This document shows, piece after piece, positions 36,371 to 37,123 of a stretch of 64,000 nt of DNA. This stretch comes from a virus. Every line of letters starts with the position of its first letter. Within the stretch, counting starts at the first letter, position 1. The translations under genes and the position numbers were made by a program. A model generated the notes under the pieces. That model saw nothing but the letters and a program-made list of their open reading frames with translations. It did not search any database and was not told the DNA's origin. The stretch is taken from positions 16,909 through 80,908 of IMG/VR virus record IMGVR_UViG_3300042352_001346, one strand, 5' to 3'.

Positions 36371-37123
36371 ATGTCTTATTCAATAGAACATTTCGTAAGA
36401 ACAATAGTTGAACCTGCAAAACGTAAAGGTAAAAAATATCTATCAGAAGAATTTTTTTACCGCAATCCCAATAGACCGCAAAAAATAAATTCCAATTATT
36501 TTTATGCACCATCAGATGGTATTATAATTGGAATGAAAGAAGTAATGCTTAAAGATAGTATTTGTGAAATAAAGGGAGAAGCATATACTTTAGATGATGC
36601 AATGGGTGGAAGATTATCTGATGAAGATTATGGTTTTCGTTCTAAAGATAAATTTTTAGTTGTTGAAGTATTTTTAACGATGTATCATGTGCATTATACT
36701 CGTGTACCTTATGGTGGTATTATTAATACAGAATATTTACCTCCTATTTTAACTCAAAATCTTCCTATGTTAAGTATGGAAAATGACTTATTAAAAGGAA
36801 TTGTAAATATGAATAATGCTGATTATTTATTTAATAATTATAGAGCATTTCAATCAATTTATAATCCAAAATTTCAAATTAATTATTTTGTATTAAATAT
36901 AGCTGATTATGATGTTAATGCTATAATTTCTCATCATCAAGACGGGGATTTAATTGGACAAAATGATATACTTGGTGCTATGCAATATGGTTCGCAAGTA
37001 ACTTTAATAGTTCCAAAACCTAAAAAATATGATGATTATGATTTAATATTTAATTCTAATCTTAAAGTTGGTGATTGTATTGAAGGTGGATTAGATTATT
37101 TAATTGAATTTATAGATAAATAA
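36371..37123 (+). CDS. Phosphatidylserine-decarboxylase-fold pyruvoyl-dependent decarboxylase, lacking a membrane anchor
   Basis: FFYRNPNR, APSDG, FLTMYHVHYTRVPYGG, YGSQV autocleavage site. Confidence 0.75.
   Translation: MSYSIEHFVRTIVEPAKRKGKKYLSEEFFYRNPNRPQKINSNYFYAPSDGIIIGMKEVMLKDSICEIKGEAYTLDDAMGGRLSDEDYGFRSKDKFLVVEVFLTMYHVHYTRVPYGGIINTEYLPPILTQNLPMLSMENDLLKGIVNMNNADYLFNNYRAFQSIYNPKFQINYFVLNIADYDVNAIISHHQDGDLIGQNDILGAMQYGSQVTLIVPKPKKYDDYDLIFNSNLKVGDCIEGGLDYLIEFIDK

Follow-up and report, generated by a model that had tools for sequence, protein, structure and literature searches.

The 64,000-nucleotide stretch of DNA analysed here (the window) comes from the IMG/VR virus record IMGVR_UViG_3300042352_001346, which is 80.9 kb long and 64% complete; the window has a G+C content of 24%, and its genes lie nearly all on the + strand. 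The open reading frame at 36371-37123 encodes a protein with the fold of phosphatidylserine decarboxylase (PSD) and is preceded by a gene for a pentein resembling the arginine dihydrolases ArgZ and AgrE. The two genes, which deposited annotations label "phosphatidylserine decarboxylase" and "amidinotransferase", constitute a pair carried by hundreds of phage contigs and by bacteria of at least seven phyla, and the evidence assembled below suggests that the pair may convert arginine into a cationic amine, quite possibly putrescine.

A soluble PSD-fold proenzyme

The protein encoded at 36371-37123 matches the Pfam family PF02666 (PS_Dcarbxylase) over residues 29-230 with an E value of 1.6e-16 (61 bits, cut-off 22), and it also matches 13 NCBIfam models of PSD and archaetidylserine decarboxylase, all of them far below their cut-offs (the best at 52.7 versus 183 bits). 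Its translation contains the motifs FFYRNP (residues 28-33), SDG (48-50), YHVHYTRVP (105-113) and YGSQV (206-210). A first-pass annotation of the window had singled out the last two as retained His and autocleavage motifs, which the translation confirms. His108 aligns with His144 of Escherichia coli PSD, a histidine described by Cho et al. (2021) as absolutely conserved and as the main activator of the cleavage serine. With its Asp, His and Gly-Ser residues all in place, the protein has the residues of a self-processing enzyme, and it would presumably cleave itself into the two chains listed in Table 1.

What sets this protein apart from short bacterial PSDs is its N-terminus. The best 19-residue Kyte-Doolittle mean within the 28 residues before F29 is -0.44 and their net charge is +2, whereas six aligned relatives of the membrane type reach 1.28 to 3.01 by the same measure, so that the segment before FFYRNP is indeed hydrophilic and basic, as had been claimed. 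By its sequence, the protein carries neither a transmembrane nor an amphipathic membrane-binding element at the N-terminus and is predicted to be cytoplasmic and soluble. In an AlphaFold2 model built from 71 sequences (mean pLDDT 94.2), the N-terminal helices (pLDDT 96-98) are packed on the core, and G207-S208 lies between strands 200-203 and 209-215. The phosphate-binding Tyr137 of E. coli PSD aligns with F101, and a phenylalanine is likewise found at this position in 90% of the membrane-type short relatives; for the second phosphate-binding residue, Ser166, no alignment was obtained. The first-pass annotation had also used the missing membrane anchor as an argument for a new function. The absence of a hydrophobic N-terminus stands, but as an argument it is weak when taken alone, since E. 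coli PSD is itself monotopic, held at the membrane through amphipathic helices.

Proteins of this type are largely viral. Among 1.84 billion representatives, an exhaustive HMMER search returned only 204 proteins at E<=1e-3, most of them of about 240 aa, and the neighbours of the protein in the ESM Atlas fall into clusters that are 93-96% viral; a word-index homologue search found nothing beyond the query itself. A tree of 166 rows divides, at a branch with 100% SH-aLRT support, into 117 soluble rows, of which 80 are metagenome representatives and 37 are bacterial genes, and 49 short PSDs of the membrane type; the tree was made by a quick method with a midpoint root, and no direction of transfer is drawn from it. 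Two rows, L223 and L262, are soluble by their hydropathy label, yet lie in the membrane-type clade, probably as a result of the start codon chosen.

The two clades have in common the motifs F-x-R-x-P-x-R, (S/A)P(A/S)DG, H-x-N-R-x-P, N-x-R and G-S, which are 88-100% conserved. Seven further positions, E137, Y152, Y172, D179, V182, Q197 and D242, are conserved in the soluble clade only; the membrane-type rows have, in the same order, S, a gap, I, G, A, A or K, and T or S. E137, D179 and D242 are present in 97, 98 and 92% of the soluble rows, respectively, and these three gained carboxylates would be compatible with a cationic substrate side chain. The idea of an acidic substrate pocket was thus examined through counts of clade-specific residues, at the level of the sequence.

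Several members of the family have unusual architectures. P0018 is fused, or read through, to an ADP-ribosyltransferase-exoenzyme domain and P0057 to an anti-CBASS Acb1 domain, P0017 has a long extension that received no domain assignment, and the sequence of P0025 is split by an intein that carries a LAGLIDADG domain. No fusion of the PSD-like protein to the pentein was found among 13 long representatives.

The partner pentein

A profile built from 18 phage homologues of the upstream pentein matches only two arginine dihydrolases in the whole PDB at E<1, ArgZ (Sll1336) and AgrE (Alr4995), with E values of 1.5e-33 to 1.1e-29; DDAH, amidinotransferases and arginine deiminases are not among the matches within that threshold, despite the label "amidinotransferase" in deposited annotations. 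The protein from the window reaches 83 bits against the NCBIfam arginine dihydrolase model, which is below the cut-off of 450. Its family has eight invariant residues, D91, N97, R121, E147, R167, H196, D198 and C308, which include the catalytic-type His (H196) and Cys (C308) of penteins, and N97 aligns with the ArgZ asparagine that is a serine in PDB entry 6juz. In human DDAH1, the alpha-amino and alpha-carboxylate groups of the substrate are bound by Asp73, Arg98 and Arg145. Motif spacing suggests that the pentein keeps counterparts of all three, which points to free L-arginine, rather than agmatine, as its substrate.

A much closer homologue of ArgZ is found in the jumbo Ralstonia phage RsoM2USA as gp5 (L107, 4986-5825; E 6e-58 to Sll1336), for which Pfam offers only a DDAH/ADI-like label. 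It is surrounded by TPR, Hsp20, glucosyltransferase and thymidylate synthase genes; neither a PSD-like gene nor another, known decarboxylase was found in this neighbourhood.

Linkage of the pair in phages

The association of the two genes is nearly invariant. All 25 IMG/VR loci found with the PSD-like profile contain the pentein, and in the reverse direction a PSD-like gene stands beside the pentein in 78 of 78 new loci from a first pentein profile (best 80 of 235 matches) and in 75 of 76 from a second one (best 80 of 168). Once duplicates were removed, 106 of the 107 distinct IMG/VR pentein sequences among the matches listed have a PSD-like gene, although the number of independent lineages behind these 107 is small, with 43 clusters when they are grouped at 90% identity, 8 at 70% and 4 at 50%. 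The PSD-like gene lies downstream of the pentein, on the same strand and within 150 nt, in 99 of these cases. The sole unpaired case, L140, is on a contig that ends 1.08 kb past the pentein, behind an inserted HNH-like gene.

The majority of the paired loci belong to one T4-like lineage, with a capsid protein that shares 55% identity with its counterpart in Flavobacterium phage vB_FspM_immuto; here the pair lies between the capsid gene and a c3 gene, a PhoH-like candidate by eye. Among deposited phages, both genes match 39 Campylobacter and 6 Bacteroides records, the listed Campylobacter rows overlapping. They are about 42 kb apart in Campylobacter phage NCTC12673 and adjacent in Bacteroides phage DAC16, where the neighbours (primase, dCTP-deaminase-like, GMP-reductase-like and DnaE genes) are the same as in the window.

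Other genes recur around the pair. Homing-endonuclease-like genes (HNH-like, NUMOD, Hef) are repeatedly found beside or within it (L140, 7027-7668; L020, 8934-9659; L001, 8731-10185), and in L023 a gene for a Tet/JBP-family 2OG-Fe dioxygenase (9358-10740) lies directly 3' of it. In the window (37575-39117), in L002 (10382-11864) and in L024, L030 and L032, an IMPDH/GMP-reductase-like gene stands behind one of the dCTP-deaminase/dUTPase type. These two genes, which may form a module for purine nucleotide conversion, are 37-42% identical between the window phage, Bacteroides phages DAC16-DAC23 and SJC03 and some IMG/VR contigs, and have no match in the Campylobacter phages. A link between the pair and the replacement of deoxyguanosine by deoxyinosine was considered and rejected, since these two neighbours are unmatched in the Campylobacter phages and missing beside most pairs. 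A role in virion decoration, considered on account of the position of the pair behind the capsid gene, was likewise rejected, as the bacterial copies sit with exporters.

Linkage of the pair in bacteria

When one genome per GTDB species was scanned, at least 578 bacterial relatives of the PSD-like gene emerged, the best 80 of which were examined. The top 37, with E values of 4e-43 or better, are genes of the soluble type from at least seven phyla, with carriers among the Actinomycetota, Verrucomicrobiota, Pseudomonadota (two Xenorhabdus), Acidobacteria, Gemmatimonadetes, Latescibacterota and Thermodesulfobacteriota. All 37 of these pair-type copies have N-terminal hydropathy values of at most 1.16, versus at least 1.59 for 39 of the 41 canonical ones. 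The pentein gene adjoins the PSD-like gene in 34 of the 37 loci and usually lies downstream of it. In five of five bacterial genomes checked with PF02666, the soluble gene (84-110 bits) exists alongside a canonical PSD gene (145-212 bits).

An exporter gene adjoins the pair in 29 of the 37 loci, usually right after the pentein; it encodes a MATE protein in 18 loci and a fused ABC transporter in 12, which suggests that the product may be a secreted amine. The resulting three-gene unit is seen within loci L184-L220 (for example, L204, 7917-11631, and L216, 7989-11093), in Xenorhabdus, Nocardia, Saccharothrix, Streptoalloteichus, Verrucomicrobia, Acidobacteria and others. As for accessory genes, three of the 37 loci have a gene of the agmatine-deiminase family and two a decarboxylase of the alanine-racemase fold, while in L218 a spermidine synthase gene lies between pentein and exporter.

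Polyamine-type neighbours

In the window, the pair is preceded by two genes whose products resemble enzymes of polyamine metabolism, an agmatinase/ureohydrolase-like (SpeB-like) protein and a deoxyhypusine synthase (DHS)-like protein that also resembles SpeY. The latter is about equidistant from the NCBIfam models for homospermidine biosynthesis, DHS and 1,9-bis(guanidino)-5-aza-nonane synthase, remains below the cut-off of each, and is unmatched among 50,697 deposited phage records. Both genes accompany the pair in the window and in L004, which belongs to the complete 130-kb IMG/VR phage G006; the SpeB-like gene, seen beside the pair in these two only, is an accessory of the module in the window lineage only. 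Genes of the agmatine-deiminase family occur near the pair in L004, L022, L185, L191 and L218, and also elsewhere in G008.

The main phage lineage was searched for such companions with a negative result: three 100%-complete genomes of it and two partial ones with the pair contain no arginase/agmatinase, DHS, agmatine deiminase or CN-hydrolase gene (0/5 each), which implies that the pair must be self-sufficient on host metabolites. No CN-hydrolase was found in any of the phage records examined, three of which have deiminase-like genes. A phosphatidylserine synthase gene (PF01066) is missing from five of five phage records, including the record of the window itself, and the earlier remark that none lies near the gene thus extends to the entire 80.9 kb of this 64%-complete record. 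Another arginine or ornithine decarboxylase of the alanine-racemase fold is also missing from five of five records, including the record of the window and G006.

The polyamine-type cluster of G006 (L004, 5472-13760) is flanked by QueE-like radical-SAM, GTP cyclohydrolase I, MazG and DUF5591 genes, an arrangement suggesting that genes for 7-deazaguanine DNA modification may be interleaved with it.

Transcription unit and promoter

The first-pass annotation had placed a promoter common to the pentein and PSD-like genes at 35240-35271, and this proposal was upheld, the site having the form TTTG-N20-TAnnTTTG. We take this form to be the -33/-7 promoter type of the Bacteroidota. A sigma-70 scan of the window does not include the site among those that it lists. 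The window contains 13 copies of the motif, versus 6.0 +/- 2.6 expected, a number that none of 100 shuffles reaches; 11 of the 13 are on the + strand, where the sites include 10684, 20453, 26922, 28273, 31566, 35240, 39123 and 53712, and several have in common a longer core, TTTGGAAAGTTTAAAAA. The recurrence of TTTGGAAAGTTTAAAAA...TAnnTTTG suggests a Bacteroidota host and would mark the transcription units of the phage.

The sites nearest to 35240 are those at 31566 and 39123, and the SpeB-like and DHS-like genes belong to the preceding transcription unit. With the promoter at 35240 before them and a strong hairpin and T run at 37587-37623 behind them, the pentein, PSD-like and SET-domain genes can be considered a single unit (Table 1). 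No SET homologue lies beside the pair in any other locus examined, and a link between the SET protein and amine or lysine methylation would be speculation. The listed TTG-start open reading frame of the dCTP-deaminase-like protein (37575-38153) has a 5' extension that overlaps the closing hairpin; since homology begins only at residue 18-25, its true start is probably an ATG near 37647.

Table 1. Features of the window at and around the pentein/PSD-like pair
Feature	Position	Strand	Basis or remark
Agmatinase/ureohydrolase-like (SpeB-like) protein, 358 aa	33114..34190	+	PF00491 E 5.9e-40; TIGR01230 110 bits, cut-off 174
Deoxyhypusine-synthase-like (SpeY/DHS-like) protein, 340 aa	34202..35224	+	PF01916 E 1.9e-33
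Promoter-like TTTG-N20-TAnnTTTG, serving the pentein, PSD-like and SET genes	35240..35271	+	Motif scan
ArgZ/AgrE-like pentein, 323 aa	35297..36268	+	Profile against PDB
Small hairpin in the 102-nt spacer between pentein and PSD-like genes	36329..36352		Terminator-like on the minus strand in the scan
Soluble PSD-fold pyruvoyl proenzyme, 250 aa	36371..37123	+	PF02666, alignments, AlphaFold2 model, Foldseek, tree
Predicted beta chain, residues 1-207	36371-36991	+	Upstream of the predicted Gly207-Ser208 cleavage
Asp49 codon, SPADG-type motif, equivalent of E. coli Asp90 by motif	36515..36517	+	Asp conserved in 89% (soluble) and 100% (membrane-type) of rows
His108 codon, aligned with E. coli PSD His144	36692..36694	+	Conserved in 98% of soluble and 100% of membrane-type rows
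Gly207-Ser208 codons, predicted serinolysis site	36989..36994	+	Conserved in 97% of soluble and 100% of membrane-type rows
Predicted alpha chain, from pyruvoyl precursor Ser208	36992-37120	+	Sequence-based prediction
SET-domain protein, 131 aa, last gene of the unit	37173..37568	+	PF00856 E 1.9e-13
Terminator-like hairpin, 16 pairs then TTTTTAATT	37587..37623	+	3' of the SET gene, closes the unit

Proposed function and its alternatives

The fold, the catalytic residues, the separation of the clade, the linkage of the genes and their polyamine-gene neighbourhood are the observations from which any functional proposal has to start. Our tentative preference, to which we would assign a little less than an even chance, is that the PSD-like enzyme acts as an ornithine decarboxylase after the ArgZ-like pentein. 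The pentein would hydrolyse free L-arginine to L-ornithine, CO2 and two NH3, and the PSD-like enzyme, once self-processed to its pyruvoyl form and freed from the ancestral membrane anchor, would decarboxylate ornithine to putrescine. In the lineage of the window, the ureohydrolase-like and DHS/SpeY-like genes would join this module and extend it towards homospermidine, whereas the phage may use the amine as a counter-ion for its DNA or in support of translation. The product of the pentein, ornithine as the substrate and the use of the amine are thus all predicted elements of the scheme. Ornithine is favoured because the near-universal partner, if ArgZ-like, would make it, in which case the route from arginine via ornithine to putrescine is complete in two steps, and because AgrE passes ornithine to a second activity by the same logic.

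The first-pass annotation had likewise proposed a repurposed soluble decarboxylase acting with the pentein. This much has been strengthened by the gene linkage, the separate clade, its acidic residues and the separate PSD of the bacterial carriers, while ornithine and arginine are both candidates for the substrate. Its designation as a new class of ornithine/arginine decarboxylase was overstated, given that the fungal arginine decarboxylase Ao-ADC1 (9jer) has already been solved and that pyruvoyl ornithine and arginine decarboxylases of another fold are known in phages.

A number of points weigh against the proposed ornithine decarboxylase. The residues of the pentein were mapped onto DDAH by motif spacing rather than by a computed alignment, and its product may be either citrulline or ornithine. 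That E137, D179 and D242 lie at the pocket is likewise a prediction from the sequence. In known systems, the counterparts of the SpeB-like, SpeY-like and agmatine-deiminase-like accessory proteins all have agmatine or a derivative of it as their substrate; with ornithine as the substrate of the PSD-like enzyme, these phage genes would depend upon agmatine from the host. Moreover, Ao-ADC1, the sole PSD-fold decarboxylase of a basic amino acid known so far, has arginine as its substrate, and the exporter in 29 of the 37 bacterial loci fits a secreted product, which is not an obvious attribute of housekeeping putrescine synthesis.

Several of these points would be accommodated if the PSD-like enzyme were itself an arginine decarboxylase (ADC) that makes agmatine and thereby completes an ADC-SpeY-SpeB homospermidine pathway in the window, a possibility that we regard as serious, although unlikely. 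Agmatine would then be converted via bis-guanidino-homospermidine to homospermidine, while the pentein would either consume arginine alongside or take a guanidino or ureido amine at a later step. The cluster of SpeB-like, SpeY-like and decarboxylase genes in the window mirrors bacterial speY clusters, which, according to Li et al. (2026), always hold an ADC, drawn from three unrelated folds and including "ODC-like" members that proved to be ADCs; all SpeY homologues tested there couple two agmatines. Neighbouring SpeB or AguA was similarly taken as a sign of ADC by Li et al. (2023). Agmatine-deiminase-family genes adjoin the pair in L004 and L022 and follow the exporter in three of the 37 bacterial loci, neither the record of the window nor G006 supplies an alanine-racemase-fold ADC, Ao-ADC1 proves that a PSD fold can act on arginine, and agmatine would presumably feed the pathways of all presumed hosts. 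However, this scheme leaves the near-universal pentein without a step, agmatine being an unlikely substrate for it by residue spacing, and complete phages of the main lineage have the pair without any agmatine-using enzyme. Accessory genes of the agmatine type are also rare, being found in two lineages among the 107 distinct phage cases and in those three bacterial loci. A less conventional amine is improbable in our estimation: the pentein could stop at citrulline, from which the decarboxylase would make N-carbamoylputrescine, or it could be an amidinotransferase that together with an ADC yields an arcaine-like bis-guanidino amine, which bacteria would export and phages would use as a DNA counter-ion. 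Non-homologous MATE and ABC exporters in the same position do hint at a secreted cation, a role as amidino donor would explain the kept arginine-binding residues and suit the database name of the pentein, and the phage records with deiminase-like genes have no CN-hydrolase. Yet the pentein profile is specific for arginine dihydrolases, the ArgZ-type asparagine is kept, and no positive evidence for such a product has emerged. More broadly, the pair could be a widespread and so far unrecognized two-enzyme route from arginine to a cationic amine, in which the PSD fold would newly serve prokaryotes and viruses to decarboxylate a basic amino acid. The product may go beyond putrescine, for instance to a guanidino or bis-guanidino amine made through an amidino-transferring pentein; bacteria would export it by their dedicated MATE or ABC pumps and phages would make it late in infection, as a counter-ion during DNA packaging, but we consider this, too, a doubtful proposition.

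The remaining two alternatives take the PSD-like enzyme away from free amino acids altogether. In one, which appears very unlikely, it would modify a macromolecule by acting on an amino acid already attached to DNA or to a virion protein, much as in pathways of thymidine hypermodification. The surroundings offer some encouragement: replication and nucleotide genes surround the gene both in the window and in the Bacteroides phages, the pair follows the capsid gene in the main lineage, the cluster of L004 has its GTP cyclohydrolase I, radical-SAM, MazG and DUF5591 flanks and L023 its Tet/JBP oxygenase. In addition, the 40 Campylobacter phage records listed are all of 124-135 kb, one of them with Fletchervirus taxonomy, and Fletcherviruses replace deoxyguanosine by deoxyinosine. 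These flanking genes, however, differ from lineage to lineage and the pentein alone is constant; the bacterial copies keep company with exporters and polyamine genes rather than DNA-modification genes, and the pentein resembles an enzyme of free arginine. The other alternative, a true PSD attached to the membrane as a peripheral protein and remodelling the lipids of the host, is the least credible of all. It would explain the PF02666 match with all catalytic residues, agrees with the deposited annotations and with an ocean survey of auxiliary metabolic genes in which viral psd is treated as a lipid gene, and can point to E. coli PSD, which also has no transmembrane helix. What speaks for a different enzyme is the separate clade with its acidic replacements, the hydrophilic N-terminus that the model packs on the core, the lack of PssA in the phage records, the retention of a PSD of their own by all five bacterial carriers checked and the constant pairing with an arginine enzyme.

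If the pair does lead from arginine to putrescine or agmatine, it would represent a new fold in prokaryotic and viral polyamine biosynthesis and, in the case of the pentein, the first ArgZ-type dihydrolase serving as an entry step to polyamines. What Li et al. (2023) have catalogued of viral polyamine genes would be extended as well; they record no SpeY homologue and a single agmatinase homologue for phages (the supplementary tables may list others), whereas the window has both a SpeY-like and an agmatinase-like gene. The exporter linkage in bacteria hints at a secreted amine.

Comparison with known systems

Among publications on phage PSD, amidinotransferase, pyruvoyl enzymes, arginine dihydrolase and phage polyamines, we found none that describes the pair. 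Neither phosphatidylserine nor amidinotransferase is mentioned by Li et al. (2023; PNAS), and the ocean survey reads viral psd as lipid metabolism. The closest matches to the PSD-like protein in the PDB, by both sequence and Foldseek, are short prokaryotic PSD/archaetidylserine decarboxylases (PRK05305/Asd type) and E. coli PSD (7cnw, 6l06). It differs from these canonical enzymes in having no hydrophobic N-terminus, in its clade-specific residues and in its partnership with a pentein instead of PssA; in addition, the soluble gene is never the sole PF02666 gene in the five bacterial genomes checked.

That the PSD fold can be turned to free amino acids is already known from fungi, as the first-pass annotation correctly stated, and the class of chemistry is therefore not new. 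Both fungal examples are among the Foldseek matches. Ao-ADC1 of Aspergillus oryzae (9jer, 9jf5) matches the model with an E value of 1.5e-3; it undergoes self-cleavage at a Gly-Ser site and decarboxylates a free basic amino acid, but is inactive as a PSD. It differs in its length of 483 aa, long N-terminal helical region and GGST site, is only 14-15% identical to the PSD-like protein, and is not detected (9jer) by the family profile at E<10; the literature consulted describes no pentein partner for it. PsiD, the L-tryptophan decarboxylase of Psilocybe (8x4q, 8zia), is found by the profile at E 0.0025 and by Foldseek at E 3e-5, but it is eukaryotic and much longer, its substrate is aromatic, and a Met occupies the position of D179 in the HMMER alignment. 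The soluble clade looks like an independent recruitment of the PSD fold, closest by descent to the short prokaryotic PSDs and not to PsiD or Ao-ADC1 (14-16% identity).

Parallels also exist outside the PSD fold. SpeDC and SpeDA (Li et al. 2023) are likewise small pyruvoyl enzymes recruited for putrescine and agmatine production, in phages and in polyamine clusters, although they have the fold of S-adenosylmethionine decarboxylase and, in the available part of that paper, no link to a pentein. ArgZ (Sll1336) and AgrE (Alr4995) are the closest solved relatives of the partner pentein; by its NCBIfam name, AgrE is a dihydrolase fused to an ornithine cyclodeaminase, whereas the window has a separate PSD-fold decarboxylase instead. 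Lastly, the bacterial ADC-SpeB-SpeY homospermidine clusters described by Li et al. (2026) resemble the window in that SpeB-like, SpeY-like and decarboxylase genes, as judged by domain, occur in one block. The window departs from them in its additional ArgZ-like pentein, in a decarboxylase fold unreported for those clusters, and in that the three phage enzymes all fall below the NCBIfam cut-offs.

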